Source of the DNA: Terriglobia bacterium
GTDB taxonomy: Bacteria; Acidobacteriota; Terriglobia; Versatilivoradales; Versatilivoraceae
Assembly: GCA_963665655.1 (NCBI GenBank)
Contig: OY762429.1
Location: 2,224,503 to 2,288,502, forward strand
Direction of reading: 5' to 3'
Length of the DNA stretch: 64,000 nucleotides
The notes beneath the pieces are model-generated. The model ran no database searches. It saw nothing but the letters and a program-made list of their open reading frames with translations, and was not told where the DNA came from. Of this stretch, positions 2,927 to 24,513 are shown in pieces. The translations under genes and the position numbers were made by a program. The first letter of the stretch is position 1, and each line of letters begins with the position of its first letter.

Positions 2927-2946
2927 GAATCCAGGATGATTTTTCC

Positions 2947-3528: not shown

Positions 3529-3573
3529 GGATTTGGCGATAGGAATCGTGGCTCGGATTCGGAGAATTCACTG

Positions 3574-8312: not shown

Positions 8313-11300
8313 TGTCATTGAACGACCGTGTTCGGATAGCCCGGCGCTTCCTTAGATCGATCCGCATCGATTCTGATCTTGGCCATGTGGCGGCCCTTGA
8401 AGGATTCGTATGTCCGCAGTCGTCCTCCAACATTCTTTTGACAATGGCACGCCACGTCTCCCAAACGGGACAGGGCGCATTCACTTGGACTGGCCCCTAC
8501 GGCAGTGGTAAATCAAGCCTTGTCGTCGCCCTAAGTGCTTTATTAAACGGCGATACAGGACTGCAGGACGAAGCAGCAAAGATCTTCGGCCAGGAGTTGA
8601 CGAGGACGATCAGGGACACTTTGCCGATTGGAACAAAGGGGTGGCGTATTCTTCCCGTCGTCGCACGACGCGACGATCCCGTCACTGTCATCGGAGAATC
8701 CGTAAGGCGGACAGCGCTCGTATCCCGTCGGCCGCGTGGCGGCTGGACCGAAAGCAACCTGATCGCCACACTGACCAAAATCGCTAGCGAAAATCCCGAG
8801 ACACACGGCGGGCTCGTTCTTTTCATCGATGAGCTAGGCAAATTCCTAGAGGCAGCCGCCCGCGACGGCTCCGATATCTACATTCTCCAGCAGCTCGCCG
8901 AAGCGTCGTCACGGAGTCAGGGGCGGTTTCTTGTCGTGGGTGTGTTACACCAAGCGTTCGAGGAATACGCCCATCGCCTTTCATACGAGATGCGAGACGA
9001 GTGGGCGAAGATCCAGGGCCGTTTCATCGACCTTATTGTCAATACAGTAGGCGAAGAACAGATCGACCTGATCTCACGCGCGATCGAAAGCGATCATCAC
9101 CCAAAGAAGCCTAGCACCCTAGCAGCCACCGTCGCGAGCTTCGCATGTCGGGATCGTGCATCTGATGCGGGGCGCATAGCCTCCATTCTGGAAACATGCT
9201 GGCCGCTGCACCCTGTCGTAGCATGCCTTCTTGGACCGATTTCGCGTCGGCGTTTCGGGCAGAACCAACGAAGTATATTCGCCTTCTTGAACTCATCTGA
9301 GCCTCACGGGTTTCGAGACTTTCTGTGTCACGCTAGGGAAGGTGAACTATACGGCCCGGACCGGCTTTGGGACTACCTTCGCGCCAACTTAGAGCCATCC
9401 ATTTTAGCTTCACCCGATGGTCACCGGTGGGCGTTGGCAGCGGAAGCGCTTGAACGCTGCGAGGCAATCGGCGCCGACGCCGTTCACATCCGGTTGCTCA
9501 AAACAATTTCCGTCATTGACCTGTTCAAGGAGCGTTCGGGACTCGTCGCGAATTCGGCCTTGCTAGGCAGCTGTTTCCCTGAAACCTCAGCCAATGGGCT
9601 TGAAAGGGCGCTTTCGCAACTAGGTACATGGTCGTTCACGATCTTCAAGAAATTCCTCAACGCCCACACCATCTTTGCAGGGAGCGACTTCAACATAGAC
9701 GAGGCGGTCCGCACCGCACTCGACGAGATCGACGAGTTTGATTTAAAGGCGCTCAAGTCGCTCGCCGGGCTGCACCCGATCCTCGCCAAACGCCACTACC
9801 ACGACACAGGTGCGCTCAGATGGTTTGACGTGAACATCGTCTCAGTCAGCAGCCTTGTCGATTTCGTCGCCAAACATGAACCGGAGAACGGCGTGATCGG
9901 CCAGTTCCTTTTGGCGATTCCAACGGAGGGAGAAAGCCGCGACTACGCCGAGGACGTATGCCGTAAGGCCACGCGCCATAGTGACGCATGGGACATCATT
10001 GTAGGGATATCGAAAAGTTTCTGGGCTATAGTTCCACTAGCGCGAGAATTGTTTGCACTGGACAGCGTCAGCAACAATCACCCAGGGCTTGCGGGAGATT
10101 CCGTCGCGCGACGGGAAGTCTCCGCACGTCTCGTTACTCTACAAACATTGCTGGAAGCGGAACTGCGCAAGGCATTTGACAATGCGCTATGGTTCCAAAA
10201 AGAACACAGGCCCAAGCGGTTACGGCAGGCCGATCTGAACGGTATAGCTTCCGAGCTAGCGGATCGTCGTTTCGGTCAATCGCCGCGCCTACATAGCGAA
10301 TTGCTAAACCGCCAGAAACCATCAAGCAACGCAATCGCAGCTCAGAACGCCCTGTTACGGTGCATGGTAATGAATGAGGGTGCGCCGCGGCTTGGGATCG
10401 TGGGGTTTCCAGCCGAGGGTGGTCTGTTTGCTTCCATTCTGGAAGCCACAGGCCTGTACGTTACGGAGGAAGCAATTGGGCGTTACGTTTCACCGATAAC
10501 AAGCACTGATCCTTGCAACTTAGCCGCGATCTGGAAGAAGGCGATTAACCACGTCAAGGAATGTGCCAACCGCACGGTAACCTTCTCTGAGTTGTTCGAG
10601 CAGTGGTCTAAGCCGCCCTTCGGCGTGAAACAGGGCATGATGCCAGTCCTTGCGGTCGCCTTCGTGTTATCGCATCGCGACAAAATTGCGGTGTATCGTG
10701 ACGGTATTTTCAGGGCGAAATTCGACGACGTGGATGTCGACTATCTGGCCAAAGACCCGACGTTTGTCCAAGTGCGCTGGATGGACCTTAGCTATGTTGC
10801 GCGTCGACTATTGTCGGGACTGGCTCAAGTTGTCCGCGATCTTGACACGGCGAACCAGCTTATTCACCTTGAGCCCATCGATGTCGGACGTGGCCTTGTC
10901 GCAGTGTACGAGCGGCTTCCGAAATGGACCAAGAGGACGATGCGGCTATCTTCGAATGCCTTAAGAATACGCGAACTGTTCAAGCGCGCCCACGATCCAA
11001 ACCAGTTCCTGTTTAACGATCTTCCGGAAACACTCGGCGAGGACGTTTCGTTTGGAGACGAAAACGATCTGCGCCTTGTTATCGAAAGCGTTCGTGAGGG
11101 GCTGCATGAGCTAGTTGGAGCGTACACGTCAATGCTGCACCGCTTGCGGGAAATCATGTTGGCAGAGTTGCAGGTTCCTAACATTTCGCCCCGGTCTTTA
11201 CAGGAGTTGCGCGTCCGCGCTGAGAATATAAAACAGCTCTCCGGTGATTTTCGACTCGAGGCTTTCGTGGGCAGACTATCGCAGTTCGATGGTTCCGACG

Positions 11301-11698
11301 AGAGTGTGGAGGGTATAGCCAGTCTTGCCGCAAATAAGCCGGCCGGAGAATGGTTCGATCCCGACCTTGATCGGTGCGCCATAGAGCTCGCCGAAATGGC
11401 CCAAAAATTCCTACGTGCCGAGACGTATGCTCGCGTTAAAGGCCGTCCTGACAAACGGCAGGCGATAGCCGTTGTGATCGCCATGGACGGCCGACCTCAA
11501 CCGCTGTTGGAGGAATTCAACATCGCGGATACGGATCGCACTGCCGTCAAAGATCTAGTTGAGCGTGTCGCTAACACCATCGGACAGACCGCCACCAGCC
11601 AACGCGGAATAATTCTGGCAGCGCTAGCGGAACTCACGACGCGCTATATTCAGACAGCGTCGACTGGGCACAATAAGAAAGAAAGAGCAGCCTCATGA
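8312..11698 (+). CDS. sspC: SspC-like large P-loop ATPase
   Basis: Walker [17 protein letters not shown] and a Walker B-like LVLFIDELGKF. Start chosen at the ATG overlapping the sspB stop (TGATG); the ORF is open from 8195, so the start is uncertain. The 3-prime end overlaps sspD by 4 nt. Confidence 0.7.
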   Translation: MSLNDRVRIARRFLRSIRIDSDLGHVAALEGFVCPQSSSNILLTMARHVSQTGQGAFTWTGPYGSGKSSLVVALSALLNGDTGLQDEAAKIFGQELTRTIRDTLPIGTKGWRILPVVARRDDPVTVIGESVRRTALVSRRPRGGWTESNLIATLTKIASENPETHGGLVLFIDELGKFLEAAARDGSDIYILQQLAEASSRSQGRFLVVGVLHQAFEEYAHRLSYEMRDEWAKIQGRFIDLIVNTVGEEQIDLISRAIESDHHPKKPSTLAATVASFACRDRASDAGRIASILETCWPLHPVVACLLGPISRRRFGQNQRSIFAFLNSSEPHGFRDFLCHAREGELYGPDRLWDYLRANLEPSILASPDGHRWALAAEALERCEAIGADAVHIRLLKTISVIDLFKERSGLVANSALLGSCFPETSANGLERALSQLGTWSFTIFKKFLNAHTIFAGSDFNIDEAVRTALDEIDEFDLKALKSLAGLHPILAKRHYHDTGALRWFDVNIVSVSSLVDFVAKHEPENGVIGQFLLAIPTEGESRDYAEDVCRKATRHSDAWDIIVGISKSFWAIVPLARELFALDSVSNNHPGLAGDSVARREVSARLVTLQTLLEAELRKAFDNALWFQKEHRPKRLRQADLNGIASELADRRFGQSPRLHSELLNRQKPSSNAIAAQNALLRCMVMNEGAPRLGIVGFPAEGGLFASILEATGLYVTEEAIGRYVSPITSTDPCNLAAIWKKAINHVKECANRTVTFSELFEQWSKPPFGVKQGMMPVLAVAFVLSHRDKIAVYRDGIFRAKFDDVDVDYLAKDPTFVQVRWMDLSYVARRLLSGLAQVVRDLDTANQLIHLEPIDVGRGLVAVYERLPKWTKRTMRLSSNALRIRELFKRAHDPNQFLFNDLPETLGEDVSFGDENDLRLVIESVREGLHELVGAYTSMLHRLREIMLAELQVPNISPRSLQELRVRAENIKQLSGDFRLEAFVGRLSQFDGSDESVEGIASLAANKPAGEWFDPDLDRCAIELAEMAQKFLRAETYARVKGRPDKRQAIAVVIAMDGRPQPLLEEFNIADTDRTAVKDLVERVANTIGQTATSQRGIILAALAELTTRYIQTASTGHNKKERAAS

Positions 11699-12534
11699 CC
11701 AAACCTGCTGTGAAGCATGTGCTCGGGCTGTCCGGTGGGCGAGATAGCGCGGCGCTAGCCGTCTACATGCGGCAAAACCATCCCGCAATCGATATCCAGT
11801 TTTTTTTTACGGACACAGGCAAGGAACTGCCCGAAGTGTATGAATTTCTAGGGCGACTTGAAGGTTTTCTTGGTAAACCGATCTTGCGGCTGAATCCTGA
11901 CCGTGACTTCGATTTCTGGCTTAAGCAATACAACCACTTTCTGCCATCGCCGCAAACGCGCTGGTGCACACGGCAGCTTAAACTGCGCCCGTTTGAGCAC
12001 TGGCTTCGCCCATTGCTTGCCAATGGAACGATGATCTACAGTTATGTTGCTATTCGCAGTGACGAGCAGTTCCGTGAAGGGTACTCCTCTAAACATAGCA
12101 ATTTGGTTGTCAAACTGCCGTTCAAGCAGGCCGGGATCGATAAAGCTGGTGTGCTTGAAATCCTAGATGGAGCCGGGCTTGGCCTACCGAATTATTATTC
12201 TTGGAGAACGCGTAGCGGCTGCACTTTTTGTTTTTTCCAGCAGAAGATCGAATGGGTTCGGCTCAAACAGCAGCACCCGGAGGCGTTCGAGGAAGCCAAG
12301 GCGTACGAAAAAAACGCCGTTGAAAACGGTTCACCTTTTACATGGAGCCAAGGTGAATCTCTCCAGCAGCTTGAAAAGCCGGAGAGGATCGTGCAGATTA
12401 GGGCGGATCATGAACGACGTTTGGCCCGCATGCGCTCCAAAGCCAAGCCAAACCCGCTTAGGCCGGATAGCGAGCCTCTAGATATTGACGACTTGTACGG
12501 AAAAGCCAAAGTCTGCCTCGCATGCCACAAGTAG
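11695..12534 (+). CDS. sspD: SspD/DndC-family PAPS-reductase-like ATP pyrophosphatase (PP-loop)
   Basis: PP-loop motif LGLSGGRDSAALAV at the N-terminus, the PAPS reductase fold pattern, cysteine-containing C-terminal motifs (CTFC; CLACHK) and ATGA overlap with sspC. Confidence 0.8.
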   Translation: MTKPAVKHVLGLSGGRDSAALAVYMRQNHPAIDIQFFFTDTGKELPEVYEFLGRLEGFLGKPILRLNPDRDFDFWLKQYNHFLPSPQTRWCTRQLKLRPFEHWLRPLLANGTMIYSYVAIRSDEQFREGYSSKHSNLVVKLPFKQAGIDKAGVLEILDGAGLGLPNYYSWRTRSGCTFCFFQQKIEWVRLKQQHPEAFEEAKAYEKNAVENGSPFTWSQGESLQQLEKPERIVQIRADHERRLARMRSKAKPNPLRPDSEPLDIDDLYGKAKVCLACHK

Positions 12535-12552: not shown

Positions 12553-14028
12553 TCAACTAAGAGCGTGTAGGGACATCAGCCTTGGGTAACGCTTAGCGAT
12601 ATCGGGATGCCGTCGCAGTCGATCTTCAAGATCCCGAGCTTCCCACCATTCGGCTTGAAAGACCTTCTTCCTTCTCATACCGTCCAAATGATCCACAAGT
12701 GAAGAACTGATTCTCGGATGTGCGATCAGGAGAAATCCGTCCGCCTGATGGCGCTCAAGCGTGTCTCTGATGTCCTGAACATCGCTTTTGCCAATCGTCC
12801 GTTGTCGGGATTTCACCTGCGCTATGAAGCGCAAAACTCTTGTTCCTTTGAAACAGACTGCGGCACCACCCTTAGACGTGGAGTCTTTTGCTCCTGTCGA
12901 ATGGGGAGCGGGAACTTTCCTGTCAATCAGAATATCACGTCCGCTATCTCTGTCGTTGACCGTCCCAACCGGTTTCGCTTGAAGGACTCCTGGTTCCCTC
13001 CGAACCAAATCAACACAAAGGTCTTCAAAGTCGCCTGGAGACATTGGTGTCTTCCAGTCAATAATCGAATCCGCAAAAAATACGCTATTTTCCCCGCTTC
13101 GTCGCTCAAGTAGGTTTTTTCTTTCCCGTTCATAAACGACGCGTCCACATTCGCCGCGAATTGCAACAATTGTCTTATCTCCGATGAAGAGACAGTGACT
13201 ATCTAGTGGCATCACAACTACGTTCTCACACCCATCGGCAGTGAGTGAAAACAGTTTGTGCGCCTTCTTGGTTAAAGCGAATGGAATTGCATTCGGTATA
13301 CCATTTGCGAGGATCGCCAATGATTTTTCGCCCTTTACCATCTCGGGTGAATAGGGGCTCAAAGCGCCTCTCAGAAGAGCTAAACGGTTCTTCGGCATCC
13401 GAATGATTGTCACGCCGCGATCATGTGACGCGAAATACATCCAAACCGGAAATGTTCTTTTGCTGATCGTCACATCTTTCGGATTTCTCAGGTACCTTGT
13501 GACAGGAACCACCCATACCGGTTCTTCGGTTTTGTGTACCACGGTCAAATCTGGACGATTTTGCAATCGGCCTTGATCCCACTGGAACACATCGCTTAAG
13601 AGGTGAAAGGCGAATGCGGTCCATGCATTCATGGATTTTCTTGCGGCCTCGAATGTGTCATCCGAGATGTTCCAAGGGCATTGCTCAAATATCACGTAAC
13701 GTGCGCCGATCTCACCTGGAACAAAGCCGTGAGGCTCATCAATTAGCCGCACAGAACCAAGCCCAAATGCGCGTAGCACTCCACCCCAAATCAGCGACAA
13801 GACGTCATGCACGTCGGTCCGGTCGCCATCGAATTGAGCGCCAGATGTGGTGACTACACCCCAAAGCAGTAGCCGTTTCTCACAGTCTTGACCAGCCGGC
13901 AAGTCAAGCATACGAAAGGGTTCGTGTGTTAGACCTGAACATTCAAATACGGGAGGTTTGTATAGTGTCTCTTGACCGCCAACTGACAACGCGGAGGCCG
14001 CCCTTGCAAATATGCTGTCAGCTTCCAT
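12553..14028 (-). CDS. Hypothetical protein with a C-terminal Mrr-like restriction endonuclease (PD-(D/E)xK) domain
   Basis: The C-terminal segment RFIAQVKSRQRTIGKSDVQDI...ADGFLLIAHPRISS resembles the Mrr_cat core. Last gene of the minus-strand operon, abutting the upstream gene. Confidence 0.5.
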   Translation of the reverse strand: MEADSIFARAASALSVGGQETLYKPPVFECSGLTHEPFRMLDLPAGQDCEKRLLLWGVVTTSGAQFDGDRTDVHDVLSLIWGGVLRAFGLGSVRLIDEPHGFVPGEIGARYVIFEQCPWNISDDTFEAARKSMNAWTAFAFHLLSDVFQWDQGRLQNRPDLTVVHKTEEPVWVVPVTRYLRNPKDVTISKRTFPVWMYFASHDRGVTIIRMPKNRLALLRGALSPYSPEMVKGEKSLAILANGIPNAIPFALTKKAHKLFSLTADGCENVVVMPLDSHCLFIGDKTIVAIRGECGRVVYERERKNLLERRSGENSVFFADSIIDWKTPMSPGDFEDLCVDLVRREPGVLQAKPVGTVNDRDSGRDILIDRKVPAPHSTGAKDSTSKGGAAVCFKGTRVLRFIAQVKSRQRTIGKSDVQDIRDTLERHQADGFLLIAHPRISSSLVDHLDGMRRKKVFQAEWWEARDLEDRLRRHPDIAKRYPRLMSLHALS

Positions 14029-15930
14029 CTATTCTCCCTCTGCTGAGAGGATATCGGTGATTTTCATGACGAAAGGCGCCTTGCGGTAATTACTCTTTGC
14101 AGAAATACCTTCTTCGACTCCCTCATTTCGCACGAGGTAAAGGTACGTCCGATTGTCTTTACCCTTTTCCGCATTCCATTTTCCATTCTGTCGCGGAAGT
14201 TCCATCAATCCCCGTTCAAATCGCTCGAAGAAGTCAAGATCGGTCTTCATGGCTGAGAGGCTTTCCTTCGCCGACGTGCGTACATCCTCAAGCGGATAAC
14301 TCTGCATAGTTTCCCTCAACGCATCGCACACGTCTTCTCCAAGCACCAAATGGTCGACTCTCCTTCCCTGTGCGTCTCGACCCACGAAGCAGCTCGCGGT
14401 TTCCATCGATTCAACCGGAACTGAGCGCGTAGTCGCATCAGGGGAAACTACATATAAGGCAATTGAAACCGGAAACGTCGCGGGAGGTTTTGCAGGCTGA
14501 CCAATACGCCCCATATCAGCCAGCAACTTCTGCTGAAGTTCCGTGGCAAAGATCTCACGAATTCGACCTACGCGTACGTAACTGCTACTGTGCTGGAGCC
14601 CCTCGCAAAGTGTTGCAAGAGGGATTGTTTGTCGTTTTTTAAGATGCCACCTGATCCAATGCCTTGACCCATCTTGCGATTTGAAGATCGGCGTCTTGGT
14701 TACCGTAGCTCCATAAGACCAATCTTTCGCCACAAGGGGCATTAGAGTACCAGGCAGAACGAACACATTTTCTGTCTCAGCGCGCGCTAAATCGCACGCG
14801 GGTGTTGCAACGAGAAATACCTCACTTGTCAATTTCCCAGTTTCTGTGTTCTTGCGTCGCAAAACGTCCCCGTATTGAATTGTTGGCACGTCCTGACCGA
14901 CTGAGAGTTCCAACCTTCGGACGTGTTGAAAGATCATGCGATGCACAAGGTCTTGGAGATCAGATGAACCTGCCAAATGCGGAGCAGGGTACTGGCCCAA
15001 CTCAATCTTGTTTAATTCTTGAGCCGCGGATATTGTTCCAACTTGGGCTTCTATCTCGTGCTGTAAGACACGATCTGAAACATCCAAGAGATACTCGCCG
15101 AGCTTTTGCCCTTCGAAATCCAGCAAAAGTGTCCGAATCTGTGCCAAATCAGATAAATCTAGGCGGCGTAGAATTCTTACAAAGTTGTCTCGTGCCTGCT
15201 CCAAACCGTCATTCCACGATTGGACGAATGCAGCAACCCGTTTGGCATCTTCATAATGGTTTGCCAGCCGGGTCAGCAAAGTTTCGAGCCTGCCATCCTT
15301 CGTCAAATCAGCCTTGCTTGCGATCCGAAATGTTGAACCGAGAAGTCCCGCCTTATCACGAAAATCATTGCGCTTCTCCCAGAGCCGAGTGCTCCTTGAC
15401 ATCAATACTACTAGTGGCGGCTTGTGCGCACGATTCGTAACGAGTTGCGAGACACGGGAGACTGCACGGTCCATATCCTGTTCAGACTGATGAAAGCCGA
15501 GGAACAAATCGATGAAGATTAGGTCCGCCTCTCTCGCTCTCTCATCGAACTCCTTCCCCATCGTTGAACAGGTCAAGCCGAAACCTTCAAGGGCCACGAT
15601 AAGTGCCTCTAAGATTTTCCGCTCTGCCTCCTGGGTACTCTCGTAGTCTCTGAATAAATGCTCACGCGCTTCAGTTGGCAGCTTGTCCCGGTATTCCCAC
15701 AAGATACTGATAAACTCCTGAGATCCGATCAGATCGCCCATAGACGTGCGTTCATATCCCGGAAACAGGTTCGAAAGTAACGCGTTTCCGGAAGCGCCCA
15801 GGTCATCAAAGAAATTCGACCAATCGCCCTCGGTGAGTTCGTCAGGACGCGGTATATCGTCGAAGACGTCATCGATAACAACAGCGTTTTTGACAACCCT
15901 CTTTTTCAACAGCTCGCGCAGTTTCTTCAT
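14029..15930 (-). CDS. Hypothetical protein with receiver-domain-like N-terminal motifs
   Basis: N-terminal VVIDDVFDD, a later IFIDLFLG and PLVVLMSRS resemble REC beta1/beta3/beta4 elements, but the spacing is non-canonical. 4-nt overlap with the upstream histidine-kinase-like gene. The C-terminal 400 aa has no recognisable domain. Confidence 0.4.
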   Translation of the reverse strand: MKKLRELLKKRVVKNAVVIDDVFDDIPRPDELTEGDWSNFFDDLGASGNALLSNLFPGYERTSMGDLIGSQEFISILWEYRDKLPTEAREHLFRDYESTQEAERKILEALIVALEGFGLTCSTMGKEFDERAREADLIFIDLFLGFHQSEQDMDRAVSRVSQLVTNRAHKPPLVVLMSRSTRLWEKRNDFRDKAGLLGSTFRIASKADLTKDGRLETLLTRLANHYEDAKRVAAFVQSWNDGLEQARDNFVRILRRLDLSDLAQIRTLLLDFEGQKLGEYLLDVSDRVLQHEIEAQVGTISAAQELNKIELGQYPAPHLAGSSDLQDLVHRMIFQHVRRLELSVGQDVPTIQYGDVLRRKNTETGKLTSEVFLVATPACDLARAETENVFVLPGTLMPLVAKDWSYGATVTKTPIFKSQDGSRHWIRWHLKKRQTIPLATLCEGLQHSSSYVRVGRIREIFATELQQKLLADMGRIGQPAKPPATFPVSIALYVVSPDATTRSVPVESMETASCFVGRDAQGRRVDHLVLGEDVCDALRETMQSYPLEDVRTSAKESLSAMKTDLDFFERFERGLMELPRQNGKWNAEKGKDNRTYLYLVRNEGVEEGISAKSNYRKAPFVMKITDILSAEGE

Positions 15931-18356
15931 GAGACAACGACCTCGTCGGGCAGTTGCAGAATGAAACGATGGAGGCGGCCTGTTTCGGGATTGAACTCGT
16001 CCTGCAGTGTCAGGCTTCCGCCGTGGTATTCGGCACAGTCGCGGGCGATGTAGAGACCGAGACCCCTGCGTTTGGATTTTTCTTTCAGCGAAAAGAACGC
16101 CCGAAAGACCTTCTCTCGGTTCTCCTTCGCGACACCACGGCCATTATCTTCATAGTTGATCGTGAGGGGATCATCTTCCATCGCAATGGTGATAAACGGC
16201 TGGAAGCCCGGCTGGTGCTGTTGGCGAAGGTCCAGCCAATAAAGCGAGTTCGATATCAAGTTTTCGATTATCTGCACGATCATTCCCTTGACGGCGCGAA
16301 TACGAACAGCACGCTCAGGCACGATAACCTTCAGCTTCACATCATGACGTGCAAATTGCAGCTCGTGACCGCTCAAAATATCTCCAATCAGGCTACCCAA
16401 ATTGAACGTTTCCTTTCGTTGACGGCCCGAAACACTAAGCGGATCAAGAACACGAAGGCGCTTACTTACCGACTTCATCTCCGACCGCAACGAATTCAGC
16501 AATCCGTCTATCTGGGCCGGAACGTCTTCCTCACGTAAGGCCTCAAGTGCAGCAAGCGCATTTTCCGTCGATCGGGCTAGTTCATGGGCCACGACTTCGA
16601 CTAGCAGCCCAACACCCGCCATCTGCATCATCTGCCGATTCTCGCTCTCGACCTCGGCAATCCGCCTTTCAGCACGAGTGAAGAATTCTTTTATTTCAAA
16701 GAAGGTGTGCTGCAATTCATCAACAATACTCGCCGAGACTGGAGCTATGTGCCTTATTTTCTTTAGTGCCACGCTTGCCCTTTTTTCGAGGCTAGACACA
16801 TCCGTCTTGGCTTCCGTCATATCGATGGGCTGGCCTTTGTAACGCCGTTGCACGTCCTTCAAAAACTCACGGAGGTGGTATTGAATGGCAAATTGCAGCA
16901 GGCCAATGAACGCTTGCTGTTCGGGGCAAACACGCAAGCCTTCGCGGTTTGTCTGGTCAGTGAGTGGCGGGTTGCCTAGCCGTGAAATCTTAACACGGCC
17001 GCAGAATTGTGCTTTGTTGAGGAGGTACCCCATACTACCGAGCGCACGCCGGTCCAAGCCTAGCCAATCGTCGTCGTCGTCTCCGTAAGGCAAAATCCGG
17101 AATCCATCACGGAATAGTAGGATCCCGGACCAGCGCTTTTGCAGTTCTCGCACAACGTTCCGATTTCCAATGCTGTCGATGGCTCCCAAGCGCCGCCGAT
17201 TAAACCAATACGCCTCGAATTCGAATTCACCCAAATCGTCTAGTGCTGACGGCGGGATTTCTCTCGATGTGCCGGTAATCGCCCCTTCAAGGTCGGGCGG
17301 GGTGAATACCCGTTTTTCAACTTCACGCGGGTGATCGAATCCCAGATTCAAAGCTTCGTAGCTGCATTCCAGAGTTGGGCCGGAATCATTGCAGACATAA
17401 CGTCCCTTTACCGCTGCATGTCGATGCGCCAAGAGAAGATGATCCATGCGAGCTATAGAAACGCGCGCACCATTCCAAAATAAAGCAATTCGGGGTCTCC
17501 GCTTGGCATCAGCGAACGGATCGGTAAGCCGCGCAAAGTCATGCTCACCTAAGTATTTGACTCGCTCATATGTCCAGTCCGCTCCTAGAGCACCGATGAT
17601 CAACCGTGTGCCGCTCCAGTCTGGCTCCGGCTTCGCCGAACCGCACTCAGGTATGATGTCGATCTCATCAATCATCGCTTCTAGGTCGCCAAAAGCAGAC
17701 CAGTCAATTTTGAGCAAATTTAGGTATTTGTCCTGTTTCTCTGCCGTTTCGACCGTAAGCTTGTCGCCTAGGCGCATGGCGGAGAGTCGTCCGATCCCCT
17801 TTTCACCTAGATAGGGTGCGCGCTGTTTTTCTGCGTTAGGACTCGCGAGCGCGGCGTCTATCACGCGTTTCCGAGAAGCTGTTCCCACTACGAGATAGTT
17901 ATCGATCAAATCCTGATGCGACATCCCCGTGCCCCTGTCGGACACGATAATTCGATTTTCAACGGTGTACGCATTGTCAAGGGCCTGAACAAGAGATGCT
18001 GGATCTTCGGCTCTGTCGATCGCCCTGCGGAAACGATTCAGTGAGCTCTGTGGGGCAGACGGATTGAGAACATGCTCAACATTCACCTTCAGACCGTTGA
18101 TATCAACCGATCCGTCAGTTGCCCTCTGGCGGATCCTCAAATAGTCATTCCGCCGTAGGACGATTTCAAAATGAATTTCCACACCGTTCGTAGACTTAGC
18201 GTCAAACGCGTTCTTGATCAGCTCATAAAATGCAATAATATCCGAACTGATAAGTTCAGCCCCGAGTTCCAGAATTGTCCGGGCGCAAATCTTGAACAAC
18301 CTGTTTACCTCCCTTTGTTGTTCGGCTTGCTGGTCAACGGTCAGGCGATGATGCAA
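15927..18356 (-). CDS. Cytoplasmic GHKL ATPase - histidine kinase fusion protein
   Basis: N-terminal GHKL domain (N-box FYELIKNAFDA, G1 VSDRGTGMS, G2 GEKGIGRLS). Central H-box VVAHELARSTENALAAL. C-terminal HK catalytic domain (N-box ENLISNSLYW, G1 EDNGRGV, G2 GLGLYIARDCAEYHGGSL). No TM segments. Confidence 0.65.
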   Translation of the reverse strand: MHHRLTVDQQAEQQREVNRLFKICARTILELGAELISSDIIAFYELIKNAFDAKSTNGVEIHFEIVLRRNDYLRIRQRATDGSVDINGLKVNVEHVLNPSAPQSSLNRFRRAIDRAEDPASLVQALDNAYTVENRIIVSDRGTGMSHQDLIDNYLVVGTASRKRVIDAALASPNAEKQRAPYLGEKGIGRLSAMRLGDKLTVETAEKQDKYLNLLKIDWSAFGDLEAMIDEIDIIPECGSAKPEPDWSGTRLIIGALGADWTYERVKYLGEHDFARLTDPFADAKRRPRIALFWNGARVSIARMDHLLLAHRHAAVKGRYVCNDSGPTLECSYEALNLGFDHPREVEKRVFTPPDLEGAITGTSREIPPSALDDLGEFEFEAYWFNRRRLGAIDSIGNRNVVRELQKRWSGILLFRDGFRILPYGDDDDDWLGLDRRALGSMGYLLNKAQFCGRVKISRLGNPPLTDQTNREGLRVCPEQQAFIGLLQFAIQYHLREFLKDVQRRYKGQPIDMTEAKTDVSSLEKRASVALKKIRHIAPVSASIVDELQHTFFEIKEFFTRAERRIAEVESENRQMMQMAGVGLLVEVVAHELARSTENALAALEALREEDVPAQIDGLLNSLRSEMKSVSKRLRVLDPLSVSGRQRKETFNLGSLIGDILSGHELQFARHDVKLKVIVPERAVRIRAVKGMIVQIIENLISNSLYWLDLRQQHQPGFQPFITIAMEDDPLTINYEDNGRGVAKENREKVFRAFFSLKEKSKRRGLGLYIARDCAEYHGGSLTLQDEFNPETGRLHRFILQLPDEVVVS

Positions 18357-18412: not shown

Positions 18413-18877
18413 CTATGCTACCTTTGCATTCCTCAAAAGCGCGTCAATACAATCCGAGAGGTTCCAGATCGGCTCCGCATCACCGTCATTGAGCATTTCA
18501 ATGATCTTGGGTAGCCCAGCTACGGCAAGTCCGCTGGCGAGCACCATCATCCTTCTCGGTTCCGATACGATCTGCACATCGCCAGTCTTTCCGATCGCGA
18601 TCAGCATAAGGGTATGCACGCGCCACGGATCGCTGCCGAATATCGATCCGTCGATGATCTTCTTCGTTTTGAATTTAGAGGGGTCTCTAGGTTCCAGACC
18701 AAGCCGCGCTGCGACGCAGACAGACAGGAACCAGAGATCGACCATGCGCGGAAACGGACTCTGATCGATGATCGCATCGGCGCTCCTTTGGCAGTAACGA
18801 GTAAACGCCTCGTGGAATTCCTCTGGGACGTTAATGTCGATCGCCTGAAACGGATTGAAATAACGGTCCGCCATCAC
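18413..18877 (-). CDS. Hypothetical protein (154 aa)
   Basis: Tightly packed between the SMC-like ATPase (4-nt overlap) and the HK-like gene, with island-like low GC. No recognisable motif. Confidence 0.45.
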   Translation of the reverse strand: MMADRYFNPFQAIDINVPEEFHEAFTRYCQRSADAIIDQSPFPRMVDLWFLSVCVAARLGLEPRDPSKFKTKKIIDGSIFGSDPWRVHTLMLIAIGKTGDVQIVSEPRRMMVLASGLAVAGLPKIIEMLNDGDAEPIWNLSDCIDALLRNAKVA

Positions 18878-21030
18878 CTGTCTCCTATGATTGACGCTAT
18901 GTCTCTGTCGACCTGCGCATCGTCATGGCGTTGACAAAGTTGGCATTCCTTGCGGTGATTGCATTCACAGCGCAGAACCTTACGTTCAGCGACGCCCGGA
19001 TCGTTGACGAGCATTTTCGGGTAATGCGTCGTATTGGTCAGCGTGAAAACTACACCCGCCGTCTCATCGATGATGTCCTCGCACCCGGCGATTTCATCGT
19101 GAGTGAGAAAGAGCACGAGCTGTGTACTTTCGCGTACTGCCTTTCGCAGTATCGAGCGCTTGACGTACCCGCTTGTCATCCCGAGCGGCGTGTCGATGAC
19201 ATTGGGCGCTTCGACCTCGCTGACCCTCGTTAGCGCAAGGATGAAAGCCAGTGTCAGTGCGCGTCGCGATGCCCCGTTGAGGTCACGGTCCGGGTTGAGC
19301 ATCCTGTTGTTCGGCCCGTAGACGATTATGTCGAATTCCCGGCTGATTTCGGCGTGCCGGATAATCGCGCCCTGTTGCGGGTCCGCGCCGATCATTTCGA
19401 GAAAGATGTAATTCATCCGTTCGCTGACCTTGGCGAGTTCCTCATTCGCCATCCGCCTATACGCGCTCATCAATACCTTCATCACATCCTGAGTGACTTC
19501 AAGTTCGGCCAGTATGCGTGCGCCTTTCTTCTGCTCGCGCAGCAGTCGGTCGCGTGTGTTCTCAAGGATTTCGCGTTCACGGTGGAGCCCTGTGAGCTGT
19601 GTTTCGATTGCAGCACGCTTTGCCAGACACCGGTCGCGCTGGTCCTTGTATTGCCGCAGGGTTACCCGCAGGCCTTGGATGTCTGTGTTCGGCAATGCGT
19701 CGAGTTGTAGTTCCAGCCCTCGGTATTTGCGTCCCGCTTCATCGCGAACGATCTGGATGCCATCCCGACGTTCGACGACCTTCTTGTACTCTTCTAGCCA
19801 TTCGCTAGTCGCCGCATTGCCAGCACCTTGCAACGGCTTAGCACTGTAAAACAGGTCAGTAATAATCTCTTGAATTTCGTCGGCGCGCTGGCTGTCATCG
19901 ATCAGCTTCTGAATATAGGCGCGACGCTTGTCACCTTGCAGGTCTCCCGGTTCAAGCGTTTCACCACAAATGCAGAGTTCGGCTGAGAGGCGCTCTTGCA
20001 AGACCGGGATCGTCGTGTTAGGGATCTTGCCCTGATCGTGTAGTTCTTCGAGTTTCTCGTAGGCCTTGCCGAGCAGGGGCGCAAGCAGATCGGTCGCGAT
20101 TGAGCGGCTACGGAAAAGGGCCGAATGTTCCTTGTTGGCTGTAGCGAGCTGGTAATCGAGTTGCCCTATATCTTGCCTGGTGGTTTCAAGCTCCTTCCGT
20201 AGCTTCACCTTGTCACCTTTTTGAAGGGCGGCTGCGATTTTGCGGTCGGTTTCGTTCACCTTCTCTTCGAATGCTGCGAATTGCTGTTTCACATCCTCGA
20301 GATCGTCTTCCAGTTTGTTCCAGTCCTCATTAATTTCTTCGAGGCGTGAAGCGGTGCTGTTCAGCTCGCTGTCACTTCCGACCTGTTTCGCGTTCCTGTT
20401 CACTTCTGCTGCAGATTTGCGGACATGCTTAATCGCATCGCCGATCACACCGACGCCGAGAAGGGAACGGATAGCGCGCTGAACGCGCTCGCGCTTGGTC
20501 GAAAGTGCTGCATCGGCTTCGATGAAGCTGAGCGCGCGGTCGCCATCCGTAAAGAAGACCTCACGCAGTTCCGGCGGTAGTTCGTCGTTGATAAGGGATT
20601 CGGGTGCAACGATGGGAGCTGCGCCGCTGTCGTTCAGCGCAAACAGCTTCACCGTTGATGCTGAACGGTAAGATCTGCTTTCCACGTCTTCGAAAGCGGA
20701 ACGAACGAGGCGATAGTGCCGCCGCGTTTTGCGTAGTTTACCGGCCAATCTCCGGTAAGTCTTTAACTCGAACTCCAACGTCGCAGTGATTGGAACCCGT
20801 TTGCGCTCATTCGCATCCCAGTCGATAGGATGCAAGCGAAAACCATCGCCCTTGCCCGGCAAGGCAACGTCGCCGTAGAGCGCCCATTGCAGCGCATGAA
20901 GGATCGTCGTCTTACCTGATTCGTTCGCCGCACGTATGATCGTGAGGTTCCTCTCGGCATCGCTGGCGAATTCAAGCTCCAGATTCCGGAGCAGCCGGAA
21001 ATTTTCAAATGAGGCGCGAAGTAGCTTCAT
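18874..21030 (-). CDS. SMC/RecF/SbcC-like AAA ATPase with a long coiled-coil (DndD-like architecture)
   Basis: N-terminal Walker A NESGKTTILHALQWALYGD, a long heptad-rich middle region, a C-terminal signature/Walker B region (LVLFLTHDE) and terminal Cys cluster CECNHRKECQLC. Confidence 0.6.
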   Translation of the reverse strand: MKLLRASFENFRLLRNLELEFASDAERNLTIIRAANESGKTTILHALQWALYGDVALPGKGDGFRLHPIDWDANERKRVPITATLEFELKTYRRLAGKLRKTRRHYRLVRSAFEDVESRSYRSASTVKLFALNDSGAAPIVAPESLINDELPPELREVFFTDGDRALSFIEADAALSTKRERVQRAIRSLLGVGVIGDAIKHVRKSAAEVNRNAKQVGSDSELNSTASRLEEINEDWNKLEDDLEDVKQQFAAFEEKVNETDRKIAAALQKGDKVKLRKELETTRQDIGQLDYQLATANKEHSALFRSRSIATDLLAPLLGKAYEKLEELHDQGKIPNTTIPVLQERLSAELCICGETLEPGDLQGDKRRAYIQKLIDDSQRADEIQEIITDLFYSAKPLQGAGNAATSEWLEEYKKVVERRDGIQIVRDEAGRKYRGLELQLDALPNTDIQGLRVTLRQYKDQRDRCLAKRAAIETQLTGLHREREILENTRDRLLREQKKGARILAELEVTQDVMKVLMSAYRRMANEELAKVSERMNYIFLEMIGADPQQGAIIRHAEISREFDIIVYGPNNRMLNPDRDLNGASRRALTLAFILALTRVSEVEAPNVIDTPLGMTSGYVKRSILRKAVRESTQLVLFLTHDEIAGCEDIIDETAGVVFTLTNTTHYPKMLVNDPGVAERKVLRCECNHRKECQLCQRHDDAQVDRDIASIIGDR

Positions 21031-21041
21031 GTGTCCAATTC

Positions 21042-21272
21042 CTACTTACCCGCATTTTGGGCTCGCTGGTCCGCCAGGAAGTGCGCAGCGGCGTTGCATT
21101 TGTCATTGATTTTCTTCTGGATAGTCGTCGCAGAAACGCGATGACCTCGTTCGTATTCAAAAATGTCTGAAATCACGTCGATAATCTCTTCCCTGTAGCC
21201 ATTGCAGCGTTCTTCGATCTCTGCGCATTCCTCAAGGATGATCGAGATTATCTTCTTGTCATTCAGTGGCAT
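21042..21272 (-). CDS. Small hypothetical protein (76 aa)
   Basis: Fits exactly between the helicase and the ATPase genes, with gaps of 18 and 12 nt. No recognisable domain. Confidence 0.4.
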   Translation of the reverse strand: MPLNDKKIISIILEECAEIEERCNGYREEIIDVISDIFEYERGHRVSATTIQKKINDKCNAAAHFLADQRAQNAGK

Positions 21273-21289: not shown

Positions 21290-23542
21290 CTACAAGTAGG
21301 CAGCATCCACCATCTTGTCAATTGTTGCCAACGGCCCGTCCGGACGTCCAGCATTGCCAGCAAGCCGCGCGAATTCCTGTGCGCGGCGCAACTCGGAGCG
21401 CACGAGGCTACGTGCATCGGGGTCGAGCCCGTCTTCCATCTTGGGTGGTAACGCCAGTAAGTCATGAATGACACTAAACGTCTTTCCGATCGCACTGCAG
21501 GTTCGCAGTAATCGTCCGCGCCGCTGCACCCATTGCCGCTCCACAGTAGTGCTCGCGAGAATGAACGCCTTGCATATTTGCGGAATGTTCACGCCTTCAT
21601 CGAGTACGCGCTTGGCCGTCAGAACCTGAATCTCGCCGTCTTGGAAAGAGCCAATAATTCGTTTTGTCTGGTCTCTGCTCGCGGTTTCTTTCGCTGTTAG
21701 CTGATGGAACAAAATGTTCTTGTCCCGTAGCAGTCGGTTCACATTGTCGAGCTGTTCTGGTCCTTTATCCGAAGCATACACAAGAGTATGCCGCAACCCG
21801 CTGGCATCCTTTTCTTCAAGCAGGGACTTCAGCATTGCCACTTTGCCTGAGGCAGTTTCCAGTAGCGCCCGCCGATCGCGTAGCAGCTTGGCGAGGTACT
21901 CGTCTGGCTTGCCGTCCTTTTCGCGCCAAGCGTTCTGCTTGATCTTACCTGTCATAAAGAACCACTGGTCCATTTCACTTTCAGTCAGATAGACCGGGTG
22001 CAAGTAGTAGTCGTATTCGACAAGGCAGCGCCCGATTGCTTCTTCAAGCGTAAAGCGAAAAACTACCGGACCAAAAAATCCTAACAGCGCTTCCGTTCCC
22101 TTTTCGTCATATTGGCGGCTCGGTGTTGCTGACAGACCGATCCTATGCTCGAAAAACTCCGGCGGTCCTCCGGTGAATGAAACGCGCCCGAGATTGTGAG
22201 CTTCATCTGCGATTAGCAGCCTCGTGCACTCGAATCCATCTACAACATCGAGAAATTCTGGTGTGCACAGAGTATCGTGGCTGACGACGACTGCCTCGAC
22301 CTGCGACAGACCAGTGCGCAAGCGCCGTTTGATTTTGTGAAGCTCTCTCGCACGGTTGTTAGCGCCACCTGCCGTCGTAAGATTGATTGGTTTCAGTCCG
22401 AAGGGAACGATTTCATCGCACCACTGTTCGATCAAGGGTACATAGGGCGCAGCAATGACAATCAGAAGGGTATTGCACCTTTGATAAAGGCGGTGTGCAG
22501 CGATCATCGAGGTGATGGTTTTCCCAGAGCCAGTCGCCATCTCCAGGATGCCGCGAAATCCTGCCTTGCACCAAGCATTGACCGCCTTGCCCTGGTGTTC
22601 AAACGGACCGTCTTCGTATCGCAGAAATCTCGGTATCGCAAAGTCTTTCTTCAGTGCGGGAACGGACCCGTAAGATTCGGGGGGTTCCGCAACCCTCGTG
22701 GCGCGACAGTAGAGCGTGCGAAGTTCGTCTTCGGTCGGTGGGGTCTCCGCGCTGTAGGTACGCAGCAGGCGCAGCTTCACGGCCTCCGGCATCGCGATTA
22801 CTATGCAATTATCATCCCTGTTCTCCCACAAGCCTCCGAATTTATAGCTCAGCTTGTCGGTAATGTAGCGCTGGTTCGGGTCCTGCCAAGAACGCGAGAT
22901 TGCTATTTGTTCTATGTTTTTGCGAATACCAGCATAGGTTACATTGCTCGATCCGTGAGCCGCGACGATATCGGTACCATTTTCGAACAACCAAACCTTC
23001 GGATGAAAGAGCGCTTCTTTCATCAGGGCAACCTTGATTTCGATACGATGCTCACGTACTAGCCAGGTCAAACATTTCAACGTGTGGCGCTGCAGCAGAT
23101 CTTCCGTGACTGTCAGCTCTTTCAAAATCCTATCGGCGACTGTTTCCGGGGAGTGTAAACCGTCCCTGATGGCGGCCTGGTCTTCGGTCCGTAGCACTGG
23201 ACTGATGATCAGCCTGAAGCTACTCTCCGAACAGGCAATATAGGTTGCAAGGCCAGGAGCAAGCGAGGCTAGCACTTCACTTGAGAAAAAACCAACCATA
23301 CACGCAACCCTTTCCGCTGCCTGGAAGCTGGGAATCAACACTTCTTCGGCGAGCGGATCGCCCGGGAGTATGTAAAGTGGTCTGGCTTCGTCCAGCGACT
23401 GCAAACTCCTCACTTGTGTCAATGTGTTCGGGTCTCGCCGCACTGGCGGTTCATTTGTCATATGAATTCCCTTCATTCGTCGTTGTCGAATTGACCGACT
23501 CGATCGCGCGTAATGAAGTGCCGGTTGCAATGCCGGCACCAT
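21290..23542 (-). CDS. PLD-like (HKD-variant) nuclease domain fused to an SF2 DEAH-box helicase
   Basis: N-terminal HPKVWLFE...AAHGSSN resembles an HxK...GSxN PLD motif. Helicase motif I EMATGSGKT, motif II LLIADEAHNLG and a C-terminal QRRGRLLR (motif VI). The start is uncertain: alternative Mets at 23476 and 23461. Confidence 0.65.
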   Translation of the reverse strand: MVPALQPALHYARSSRSIRQRRMKGIHMTNEPPVRRDPNTLTQVRSLQSLDEARPLYILPGDPLAEEVLIPSFQAAERVACMVGFFSSEVLASLAPGLATYIACSESSFRLIISPVLRTEDQAAIRDGLHSPETVADRILKELTVTEDLLQRHTLKCLTWLVREHRIEIKVALMKEALFHPKVWLFENGTDIVAAHGSSNVTYAGIRKNIEQIAISRSWQDPNQRYITDKLSYKFGGLWENRDDNCIVIAMPEAVKLRLLRTYSAETPPTEDELRTLYCRATRVAEPPESYGSVPALKKDFAIPRFLRYEDGPFEHQGKAVNAWCKAGFRGILEMATGSGKTITSMIAAHRLYQRCNTLLIVIAAPYVPLIEQWCDEIVPFGLKPINLTTAGGANNRARELHKIKRRLRTGLSQVEAVVVSHDTLCTPEFLDVVDGFECTRLLIADEAHNLGRVSFTGGPPEFFEHRIGLSATPSRQYDEKGTEALLGFFGPVVFRFTLEEAIGRCLVEYDYYLHPVYLTESEMDQWFFMTGKIKQNAWREKDGKPDEYLAKLLRDRRALLETASGKVAMLKSLLEEKDASGLRHTLVYASDKGPEQLDNVNRLLRDKNILFHQLTAKETASRDQTKRIIGSFQDGEIQVLTAKRVLDEGVNIPQICKAFILASTTVERQWVQRRGRLLRTCSAIGKTFSVIHDLLALPPKMEDGLDPDARSLVRSELRRAQEFARLAGNAGRPDGPLATIDKMVDAAYL

Positions 23543-23799: not shown

Positions 23800-24513
23800 T
23801 CAGCGCCCTAATAGTGTTCTAAGTTTCTCTATTACGTGCCATTGTCTGGATCGCCTTAGATAACCCGGATGGTACGTTCGGAAGGATTTCCTATGCTCTT
23901 TGTCGTGGTTCAAACGGTTCAAGCAAGCTAAGCAACGCAAATTGAATCCCTTGACCTGTTCGAACTCCACACAGGGGAAGGTTGCTTTGATTCGGTTATC
24001 ATACCAATGCCCAGTGAAGAGAATGACAACATCTGGTTTTGTTACGCACAGTTCGTACTGGCGAAGACAGGTCGAGCAGATTAGCTCCTCAAGCTCATGG
24101 TGAGGCTTCTGCCCATTGTCATCAACTTTGATCAGGTTTGACCAAAGGAATCCCCGCGGTGGTCCGTCGGGATTCAGAAAATTGTAGACCTCATAAGCCG
24201 CTTGCCAGAAAGGCGATTTCATTTTCCTTTTCCCCATCTCGAAACGACGATACTGGTCGAGGAGAGCCTCAATACCATCTTCTGGGTGGCCCCACCCGTT
24301 CGTTTGCTGGCCGACCACCATCAACTTCACGCTTGCTTCGTGGTACGCGTGGGGAACATGGATAAGCAATGGTCCTCCAAGATTCCGTTCCTTAGAAAGC
24401 TGGGACCAAACATCATTATCAAGAACCGTCGAATACATCTCGAAGAGCTTACGATTCATGTCGAACATTCGGTCCCCTTTATTGGCGTCCCAGGTGCTCA
24501 GCGTGCGGACCAC
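23800..24513 (-). CDS. Hypothetical protein (237 aa), first gene of the minus-strand island operon
   Basis: Coding-like ORF in the low-GC island, preceded by a ~330-bp AT-rich non-coding region. No recognisable domain. Confidence 0.4.
   Translation of the reverse strand: MVRTLSTWDANKGDRMFDMNRKLFEMYSTVLDNDVWSQLSKERNLGGPLLIHVPHAYHEASVKLMVVGQQTNGWGHPEDGIEALLDQYRRFEMGKRKMKSPFWQAAYEVYNFLNPDGPPRGFLWSNLIKVDDNGQKPHHELEELICSTCLRQYELCVTKPDVVILFTGHWYDNRIKATFPCVEFEQVKGFNLRCLACLNRLNHDKEHRKSFRTYHPGYLRRSRQWHVIEKLRTLLGR

Follow-up and report, generated by a model that had tools for sequence, protein, structure and literature searches.

What does a histidine-kinase-like protein do when it lies in a low-GC bacterial defence island, coupled to a partner with receiver-like motifs? 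The two genes lie within the 64-kb window, that is, the whole stretch of DNA analysed here. The earlier note had rightly placed the pair in a defence island and had overlooked both the identity of the island, an SspABCD/PbeABCD-like phosphorothioate system, and the linkage of the pair to Ssp. To one side of the pair, all members of an SspABCD module are present: an SspA-like cysteine desulfurase (6027..7199, (-) strand; Pfam Aminotran_5, 1.2e-78), which adjoins SspB in related loci too; SspB (DUF4007; 7353..8312, (+) strand; PADLOC SspB, 2e-107; Pfam DUF4007, 2.2e-86); the SspC ATPase (8195..11698, (+) strand; PADLOC SspC, E=0, 1321 bits), whose profile match starts at residue 42, so that the gene probably begins near 8310; and the PAPS-reductase-like SspD (11695..12534, (+) strand; PADLOC SspD, 5.9e-135; Pfam PAPS_reduct).

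Directly upstream of the kinase and on the same (-) strand are PbeA-like and PbeC-like genes together with genes at the PbeB and PbeD positions. The PbeA-like protein (21290..23542) joins an HKD(PLD) nuclease to an SF2 helicase (PADLOC PbeA, 3.6e-191; TIGR04095, 2.2e-107; Pfam ResIII, Helicase_C and PLDc_2), and the PbeC-like protein (18874..21030) is a CxC ABC ATPase related to DndD (PADLOC PbeC, 7.9e-51; TIGR03185 DndD, 5.8e-28), with a CICGE motif in its translation. A small 76-aa ORF at the PbeB position (21042..21272) is assigned by position only and had no match in a family search. The PbeD-like 154-aa protein (18413..18877) had no match in a Pfam search; it occupies the DndE-cognate position after the CxC ABC ATPase, is 65-86% identical across all Pbe-type loci, and has a role suggested by its position and by PMC10853773. 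Read from its sequence, the island is an SspABCD plus PbeABCD-like phosphorothioate system.

The kinase had been described as an 809-aa protein, the length of the mechanical ORF reaching to 18356. Because homologues are all about 790 aa and GGGAGG stands ahead of a TTG at 18299, we place the gene at 15927..18299 on the (-) strand, encoding a soluble histidine-kinase-like protein of 790 aa with a TTG start. All kinase motifs reported earlier are present in the translation (VVAHELARSTENAL, IENLISNSLYW, EDNGRGV, GLGLYIARD, ELIKNAFDA, DRGTGMS, GEKGIGRLS), and the claim of a histidine-kinase core with a second, N-terminal GHKL ATPase is borne out by Pfam and PDB matches far above chance. Pfam HATPase_c matches residues 693-804 of the 809-aa ORF (E=3.6e-18) and HATPase_c_3 is found at E=3.6e-14. 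In phmmer searches against PDB, residues 535-784 of the 790-aa kinase align to the DHp and CA domains of solved histidine kinases (LvrB at 1.6e-14, FixL among others) and the N-terminus aligns to HtpG; a profile of the kinase family matched Hsp90-family N-domains at about 1e-7. The N-terminal GHKL also matches the BbrUII/HgiDII restriction enzyme family (NF050001, 1.7e-13; PADLOC REase_II, 2.2e-6). No transmembrane-like hydropathy segment is found (maximum Kyte-Doolittle 19-residue mean of 1.31), in agreement with the proposed lack of a membrane anchor.

The protein can be divided into an Hsp90/MORC-type GHKL ATPase (residues ~12-215), a middle region (216-530), a DHp domain and a CA domain (660-790). 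H572 of the H-box AHELAR (codon at 16584..16586, (-) strand), the histidine predicted to accept the phosphoryl group, falls inside the DHp-aligned stretch. Across 24 kinase homologues, with identities down to 37%, the Bergerat motifs of the extra GHKL (E26/N30/D33, D121xGxG and GxKGxG) are invariant, as are H572-E573, N680/N684, D718-N719-G722, F732/F735 and G746xG748. By sequence the protein has the organisation of a class I histidine kinase, with an H-box histidine in DHp and, after it, a CA domain that has the N, G1, F and G2 boxes. It also has the layout of HEF_HK group 1, in which HATPase_c_3 is N-terminal, HATPase_c is C-terminal and no transmembrane segment occurs. Its score against HEF_HK (PF19191; E=1.5e-4, 22.6 bits) falls below the 24.1-bit cut-off; an A. 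baumannii homologue scores 18.8 bits and another homologue (P0195) has a precomputed PF19191 match. In the 24-homologue alignment conservation is highest in the extra GHKL and in the middle region, and the latter, to which no fold is assigned, could itself hold the key activity.

The 633-aa partner (14029..15930, (-) strand) consists of a receiver, a helical linker, a MazF/CcdB-fold domain and a C-terminal alpha/beta domain. The receiver-like motifs VVIDDVFDD, IFIDLFLG and PLVVLMSRS are all present in its translation, and residues 1-225 adopt an otherwise regular (beta/alpha)5 fold in a structure model. The non-canonical spacing of the motifs is due to a helical insertion of about 80 residues (~24-116) between beta1 and beta2. 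In the model, D20-D21, D141, S178 and K206 lie at the C-terminal ends of beta1, beta3, beta4 and beta5, which corresponds to the residue set of the receiver superfamily: an acidic pair after beta1, an aspartate at the end of beta3, a serine or threonine after beta4 and a lysine after beta5. The predicted phospho-acceptor D141 (in IFIDLFLG; codon at 15508..15510, (-) strand) and K206 are invariant in 48 partner family members down to 16% identity, and at least 90% of them keep D20, D21 and S178. Profile searches did not recognise this domain: Pfam Response_reg gave no match, Response_reg_2 (PF19192) gave none at E<=10 for the window partner, and none at E<=0.1 in 10 distant relatives or three plasmid homologues, and hhalign did not align the partner with CheY. 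An hhalign comparison with a Campylobacter receiver-type partner was weak (E 9e-4, probability 23%). Judged by the structure model, the partner has a genuine receiver fold in which the phospho-acceptor residues are conserved.

The remainder of the partner, previously treated as one unknown 400-aa C-terminal domain, separates into the helical linker (residues 226-345), the MazF/CcdB-fold domain (~346-480; 14491..14895, (-) strand) and a less conserved alpha/beta domain (481-633). The second of these shows the characteristic beta-barrel of the MazF/PemK/CcdB superfamily (Foldseek E 0.03-0.06). The model and the 48-member alignment place in it the invariant polar residues of the family other than those of the receiver, with G354-D355, C379-D380, R458 and R475 invariant. 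Neither a Pfam PemK/CcdB match nor, in a profile search of PDB sequences, a MazF was found, and the catalytic Arg/Thr of MazF could not be mapped onto the domain. The MazF-like assignment would hold at the level of the fold only.

Related loci reveal how tightly the two genes are coupled, and to what. The overlap of the kinase stop with the partner start, noted earlier, is real (gtctcATGAag), and in all loci the kinase gene directly precedes the partner gene on the same strand; where both coordinates were called, the two genes overlap or are no more than 3 nt apart. An ssp modification gene is found in the examined flank of 24 of the 25 distinct kinase-plus-partner loci, a sample that favours a close clade since 13 loci were found by peptide patterns of the window protein; in the single exception the contig ends 2.3 kb downstream. 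The ssp-linked loci span at least nine phylum-level groups, plasmids and metagenomes, and in three of them (L002, L025, L028) the order sspB-C-D-kinase-partner runs on one strand. Other modules beside the pair vary: PbeABCD-like in the window, SspFGH (with which the pair coexists in L014, L018, L022 and L027), a ~805-aa protein, or none. The pair also occurs without Pbe genes; most loci hold another full restriction module of one of these three kinds, and L015, L021 (A. baumannii) and L026 have no other known restriction module within the flank. The pair was never found in a housekeeping context among the related loci. Because it adjoins ssp genes wherever the flanks are readable, it is probably an arm of Ssp defence and not a housekeeping system, namely an uncharacterised signalling or effector arm of the phosphorothioate defence system. 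In sister systems the same kinase type is paired with a dcm or N6-methylase (computed here; see also PMC8011034), which points to a general partnering of this kinase type with DNA-modification modules.

The Mrr-like nuclease that had been put forward as a possible output does not fit this pattern. Its gene starts directly after the partner stop (TAGATG) and encodes a protein of 491 aa that ends in an Mrr-type restriction endonuclease domain (12553..14028, (-) strand; Pfam Mrr_cat, E=2.8e-5). It is intact in only three of the 25 distinct loci (the window, L003 and L009), with remnants in L005 and L011, and is absent elsewhere, and it is therefore an optional accessory and not the core output.

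The pair was then compared with known systems. Phosphotransfer-based immune signalling had been said to be known only from Detocs. Detocs is not the sole precedent, because HEF_HK / Response_reg_2 pairs (PF19191, PF19192) were described computationally beside restriction-modification genes in 2021: proteins with HATPase_c_3, HEF_HK and HATPase_c had receiver-like proteins as linked neighbours (91.6%; Bellieny-Rabelo et al., 2021, PMC8011034). Those pairs resemble ours in having a soluble group 1 kinase with HATPase_c_3, DHp and HATPase_c that adjoins a divergent receiver with loop or helix insertions at DNA-modification/restriction loci. They differ in that the window kinase is below the HEF_HK cut-off, that the partner and 13 relatives lack a Response_reg_2 match, and that a C5 methylase with Vsr stands where SspABCD phosphorothioation stands here. 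That study never mentions phosphorothioation and does not assign an output domain to the receiver protein.

Detocs itself consists of the DtcA kinase, DtcB and the receiver-PNP effector DtcC, with a PNP effector in 80% of systems; DtcB, earlier taken for a separate Hpt protein, is a stand-alone receiver 'buffer' (10.1101/2023.01.24.525353). Both systems place a phosphorelay in a defence context with a receiver fused to a potentially toxic effector, and output domains seem modular across relatives. Detocs combines a TPR sensor kinase with a third buffer receiver and a PNP ATP-nucleosidase and has no link to DNA modification, whereas the window pair has a kinase with a GHKL/MORC-type N-terminus, no third receiver protein, a predicted MazF/CcdB-fold output and an obligate sspBCD linkage. 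Membership of Detocs was rejected, as the operon has no third receiver gene, the output is not PNP and no Detocs PADLOC model matched. Among PADLOC models, none matched the partner and the kinase matched REase_II only. SspE and SspFGH (PMC8092258) are likewise encoded beside sspBCD and can coexist on one modification module, as the pair does with SspFGH or Pbe, but have no homology to it: SspFGH comprises a Walker-A protein and an FtsK-like translocase, and SspE has neither kinase nor receiver. PADLOC SspF/G/H models match adjacent genes in L014 at E<1e-200 and not the kinase or partner, and SspFGH membership was rejected. PbeABCD and CxC-ABC ATPase systems (PMC6459918, PMC10853773) share with the window the genes upstream of the kinase and differ in having been described with DndCDEA, not Ssp; word searches of PMC10853773 found no kinase or receiver component. 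The paraMORC and BbrUII/HgiDII GHKL restriction enzymes (NF050001) have the ATPase module, and nothing more, in common with the kinase (profile positions 47-177 of 659), and the matches give no hint of a DHp/CA core or a receiver partner.

Domain identities, conservation of catalytic residues and genomic linkage are established for the pair. From these we propose, with confidence evenly poised, that it is a cytoplasmic two-component-like module of Ssp DNA-phosphorothioation defence in which a phosphorelay turns on a toxin-like effector. The N-terminal GHKL and the middle region would serve as the input and, if paraMORC and GHKL restriction proteins are a guide, would watch DNA, its phosphorothioate status or the Ssp machinery. 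As the conserved residues suggest, this input would govern autophosphorylation, in which the C-terminal CA domain modifies H572, and the phosphoryl group would pass from H572 to D141 of the partner, a step also suggested by the strict gene coupling. Receiver phosphorylation, typically via dimerisation, may then turn the MazF/CcdB-fold domain that the partner itself carries into an active toxin-like effector; acting perhaps as an RNase or in some other way on nucleic acids, this domain would halt growth or phage replication. The pair would operate beside interchangeable restriction modules, which are PbeABCD-like here and in other loci are SspFGH or the ~805-aa protein. Some loci have the pair as the sole non-modification partner of SspBCD, and the Mrr-like nuclease is an add-on.

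Regulation is the default role of kinase/receiver pairs, and the pair might instead be a regulatory two-component system that governs the expression or activity of the ssp genes and/or the restriction modules, keeping modification and restriction in balance without autoimmunity (cf. DndB on dnd) and without attacking the invader. Because most loci already hold a full restriction module, its part could be that of a regulator or a sensor serving its neighbours and not that of an effector, and a 2025 mBio paper on A. baumannii raises an epigenetic role for Ssp; we judge this account unlikely. The toxin-type fold in the partner also suits a guard or abortive-infection sensor that responds to phage interference with the Ssp machinery, or to another infection cue, and not to DNA phosphorothioate. 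Detocs offers the precedent of a kinase-to-receiver relay setting off a toxic effector upon infection (10.1101/2023.01.24.525353), and co-occurrence with differing restriction modules is expected of a back-up layer. However, the often co-operonic sspBCD linkage is tighter than mere co-location in a defence island would give, sister kinases show a similar tie to methylases, and the resemblance to BbrUII/HgiDII-type enzymes suggests DNA as the ligand, so that a guard seems quite unlikely to us.

Phosphotransfer might also be vestigial. The kinase-like protein would then be a MORC/GHKL DNA-clamp ATPase at work in a restriction complex, and the partner, its receiver a pseudo-receiver, would be a structural or nuclease subunit. 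Pseudo-receivers are common, the GHKL matches restriction enzymes, and conservation of the kinase peaks in the extra GHKL and middle region. Yet the phospho-histidine, the N, G1 and G2 boxes and the full receiver quintet are invariant or nearly so over very large divergence, which is not expected of vestigial sites, and we consider this account improbable.

A phosphorelay arm of Ssp defence, the reading we prefer, would bear on a recognised gap, as most sspBCD modules lack a known restriction partner (SspE ~7%, SspFGH ~7%; PMC8092258). Linked to sspBCD in 24 of 25 distinct loci across many phyla and on plasmids, the kinase/receiver pair is a concrete and testable candidate for the missing restriction arm. 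If this is confirmed, phosphotransfer signalling acting directly in bacterial immunity would have a second experimentally grounded example besides Detocs, and the first one tied to an epigenetic self-mark; the HEF_HK-type kinases found with methylases in hundreds of genomes would gain a function as well. More tentatively, and as something possible rather than probable, SspBCD and the pair may together form a complete, previously unrecognised type of phosphorothioate defence, leading from DNA self/non-self through a His-Asp phosphorelay to a MazF-fold toxin. Its restriction arm would then be a signalling cascade instead of a nuclease complex, and it would supply the missing effector of 'orphan' Ssp systems, including that of Acinetobacter baumannii global clone 2.

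The island that holds the pair covers about 6-25 kb and has a GC content of 0.50-0.56, against 0.62-0.67 outside. The earlier note was right to read defence genes here; it did not recognize that they form specifically a phosphorothioate (PT) system, with SspABCD and Pbe-like components. More specifically, PADLOC identified SspB (7353-8312, +, 2e-107), SspC (8195-11698, +, E=0) and SspD (11695-12534, +, 5.9e-135), and a cysteine desulfurase gene divergent from sspB (6027-7199, Aminotran_5 1.2e-78) encodes the SspA equivalent. A tight minus-strand array converges on sspBCD and consists, in order, of a PbeA-like fusion of HKD nuclease and SF2 helicase (21290-23542; PbeA 3.6e-191, TIGR04095 2.2e-107), a 76-aa ORF in the PbeB position (21042-21272), a PbeC-like CxC ABC ATPase containing CICGE (18874-21030), a 154-aa protein in the PbeD position (18413-18877), the histidine-kinase-like protein (15927-18299), its 633-aa partner (14029-15930) and a 491-aa protein with an Mrr_cat domain (12553-14028). 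As noted earlier, the kinase stop overlaps the partner start (ATGA); the ATG of the mrr-like gene abuts the partner stop (TAGATG).

A promoter and terminator scan of 12-25 kb found sites no commoner than in shuffled sequences and did not inform operon boundaries. No tRNA that could serve as integration site was found by a tRNA scan of the window, and no integrase was among the island ORFs scanned. The island is flanked by a DsbA-like gene (3574-4308, +) and a TsaD-like gene (25529-26212, -), and an ORF at its edge (23800-24513, -) has no family match at E<=0.01. The mechanically called SspC ORF overlaps SspB by 118 nt (8195-8312), yet the SspC profile match begins at residue 42, so the real start probably lies near the SspB stop. 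The PbeA profile match begins at residue 62 of the 750-aa ORF.

We then compared the pair across genomes. A 50%-clustered library contains 744 representatives of the partner family at E<=1e-3, and 25 distinct loci with both genes, the window among them, were examined. The sample includes 11 genomes (Latescibacterota, Acidobacteriota, Gammaproteobacteria, Binatia, Thermodesulfobacteriota, Rhodothermales and others), 7 plasmids (Agrobacterium, Rhizorhabdus, Ensifer, Devosia, Acinetobacter baumannii, Polaromonas) and metagenomic or genomic contigs whose partners share just 22-30% identity with that of the window. The partner gene lies directly downstream of the kinase gene in all 25, and at least one ssp modification gene is present within the fetched flank in 24; the remaining contig, L008, ends 2.3 kb downstream. 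Three loci (L002, L025, L028) have the one-strand order sspB-C-D-kinase-partner. The other neighbours vary: PbeA/C/D-like genes occur in 11 loci, SspF/G/H in 4 (confirmed by PADLOC at E<1e-200 in L014) and an unannotated protein of about 805 aa in 4, whereas L015, L021 (A. baumannii) and L026 have no other such neighbour within 8-10 kb; L026 is a small island made up of an integrase gene, the pair and sspDCB. The Mrr-like nuclease, which the earlier note had put forward as a possible output, is intact solely in the window, L003 and L009 and is missing or decayed in most loci; we therefore rejected it as core output. Given variable neighbours and steady ssp genes, the pair consistently accompanies the Ssp modification module and no particular nuclease. 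Identity of the pair with SspFGH was also considered and rejected.

The unannotated 805-810-aa protein (L002:3-2231, L016:18602-21034, L019:3544-5961 and L020:11176-13596, all minus strand) adjoins ssp, kinase and partner in loci that carry neither Pbe nor SspFGH. Its copies are 43-71% identical, the two scanned (L016, L019) have no Pfam match, and the protein is a candidate for another partner module of Ssp. Upstream of the distant ssp, kinase and partner genes in L016/L017 (2848-6343), a methyltransferase gene with a weak HNH_4 match and a DndB-family gene suggest that Dnd-type and Ssp-type components have mixed further. An insertion of about 2.6 kb splits the kinase gene in L009 (4974-9998), in L011 PbeA is frameshifted and Mrr reduced to a remnant (2479-4642 and 11903-12239), and only fragments of kinase and partner are left in L012 (9497-10338), which shows that the module has decayed in some genomes.

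Every motif quoted in the earlier note is present in the translations, and its call of a histidine-kinase core with a second GHKL ATPase is statistically solid. Pfam reports HATPase_c (3.6e-18), HATPase_c_3 (3.6e-14) and HEF_HK (1.5e-4), and about 250 residues align to the DHp and CA domains of solved kinases (LvrB, 1.6e-14). The N-terminal module resembles Hsp90-family ATPase domains (about 1e-7 with the family profile) and also matches the GHKL domain of BbrUII/HgiDII-type restriction enzymes (1.7e-13). Hydropathy reveals no membrane segment, in line with the absence of an anchor noted before. The ORF start has to be moved, since homologues are 790 aa long and a TTG at 18299 is preceded by a GGGAGG ribosome-binding site; the 809 aa first assigned were too many. 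Among 24 kinases down to 37% identity, the predicted phospho-His with its neighbour (H572-E573), the N, G1, F and G2 boxes and the Bergerat motifs of the extra GHKL domain (E26/N30/D33, D121xGxG, GxKGxG) are all invariant. The most conserved part of the kinase is the region between the extra GHKL and DHp (residues 216-530; 16710-17654, -), with RDGFRxxPYGxxxDDWLxLD, DQTNREGL and many invariant Trp, Arg and Asn residues; it has no match in Pfam or PDB sequences.

The partner falls in no family of Pfam, NCBIfam or PADLOC, Pfam likewise assigned none to 13 of its relatives (Response_reg_2 included), and phmmer and profile searches against PDB sequences returned nothing, with no MazF signal. An AlphaFold2 model that drew on 45 homologues reached a pLDDT of 77, with 80-92 in its N-terminal part. 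Residues 1-225 are modelled as a (beta/alpha)5 unit, with a helical insertion of about 80 residues after beta1 that would account for the previously reported non-canonical motif spacing. The outcome that the earlier note had named as refuting, an N-terminus without a CheY-like fold, is therefore not borne out. Using hhalign, the family profile did not align its receiver to E. coli CheY, and alignment to a receiver-type partner from Campylobacter placed the beta3 aspartate weakly (E 9e-4, probability 23%). Judged from the alignments, the predicted phosphorelay residues are under strong purifying selection.

What had been described as an unknown 400-aa C-terminal domain and possible output resolves into a helical linker (226-345), a beta-rich domain (about 346-480) and an alpha/beta domain (481-633). 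With residues 336-633 modelled on their own (pLDDT 78), the top three hits of an independent Foldseek search were MazF chains (probability 0.98-0.99, target TM 0.60-0.64, E only 0.03-0.06); as the sequence itself gives no signal, the result assigns a fold and does not place the domain in the family. Outside the receiver, most residues that are invariant across the family (G354-D355, C379-D380, W428, R458, Q466, R475, G477) fall in the beta-rich domain, and the last domain is poorly conserved, which marks the predicted MazF-fold domain as the putative functional core of the output.

The phosphorelay interpretation of the earlier note is thus partly supported, and its novelty was overstated: the same soluble kinase architecture (HATPase_c_3+HEF_HK+HATPase_c) was published in 2021 (Bellieny-Rabelo et al., 2021; PMC8011034). 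That purely computational work covered 644 regions, and in 91.6% of them the kinase is linked to a receiver-like protein (Response_reg_2); most lie next to genes for C5-methylases, Vsr and type II R-M. Its authors propose descent from paraMORCs and a regulatory role, and the article text does not mention phosphorothioation. Sister arrangements occur on a Campylobacter plasmid (kinase, 340-aa receiver protein, dcm) and a Hymenobacter plasmid (N6-methylase, kinase, 227-aa protein, MBL hydrolase). Compared with these HEF_HK/Response_reg_2 pairs, the window kinase scores borderline for HEF_HK (22.6 vs 24.1 bits) and its partner lacks a Response_reg_2 match, which sets the Ssp-linked clade apart as a branch of its own within this type of system. 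Detocs, the validated defensive phosphorelay, has a TPR sensor, a PNP effector and the buffer receiver DtcB, which the earlier note had taken for an Hpt protein, and unlike our pair has no link to DNA modification. The SspFGH work (PMC8092258) and the Dnd/Pbe reappraisals (PMC10853773) contain no kinase, a full-text literature search for SspBCD/SspABCD with histidine kinase or HATPase gave no result, and the sole hint comes from a single sentence of a paper on the A. baumannii pangenome (PMC12421847). Three features appear to be new: the pair is steadily coupled to SspBCD, it occurs independently of the Mrr, Pbe and SspFGH modules, and its conserved output is predicted to have a toxin-like fold.

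The best-supported reading, to which we give about an even chance, is an Ssp-coupled phosphorelay with the MazF-fold domain as its output. Input would be received by the GHKL/MORC-type N-terminus and the highly conserved middle region; the analogy with paraMORCs and GHKL restriction enzymes makes DNA or its PT status the probable signal. The CA domain would then phosphorylate H572, the phosphate would pass to D141, the predicted acceptor of the partner, and the activated receiver would turn on the MazF-fold domain; dimerisation at this step would agree with the behaviour of receivers and of MazF alike. The analysis establishes the domain identities, the conserved residues and the genomic linkage, whereas signal, phosphotransfer and effector target are inferred. 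Genomic context led us to reject a housekeeping two-component system, no such setting having been seen in the 25 loci. That the pair regulates ssp or pbe genes is unlikely, and the idea is weakened by the lack of a DNA-binding output and by loci that hold nothing else to regulate. We are somewhat more doubtful that it is a guard or abortive-infection sensor that does not read PT, and a vestigial relay within a MORC-like restriction complex seems improbable, given that the His, Asp and Lys residues are invariant.

For orphan Ssp systems, among them that of a clinically dominant A. baumannii lineage, the pair is a candidate for the effector they lack, and one that can be tested directly.
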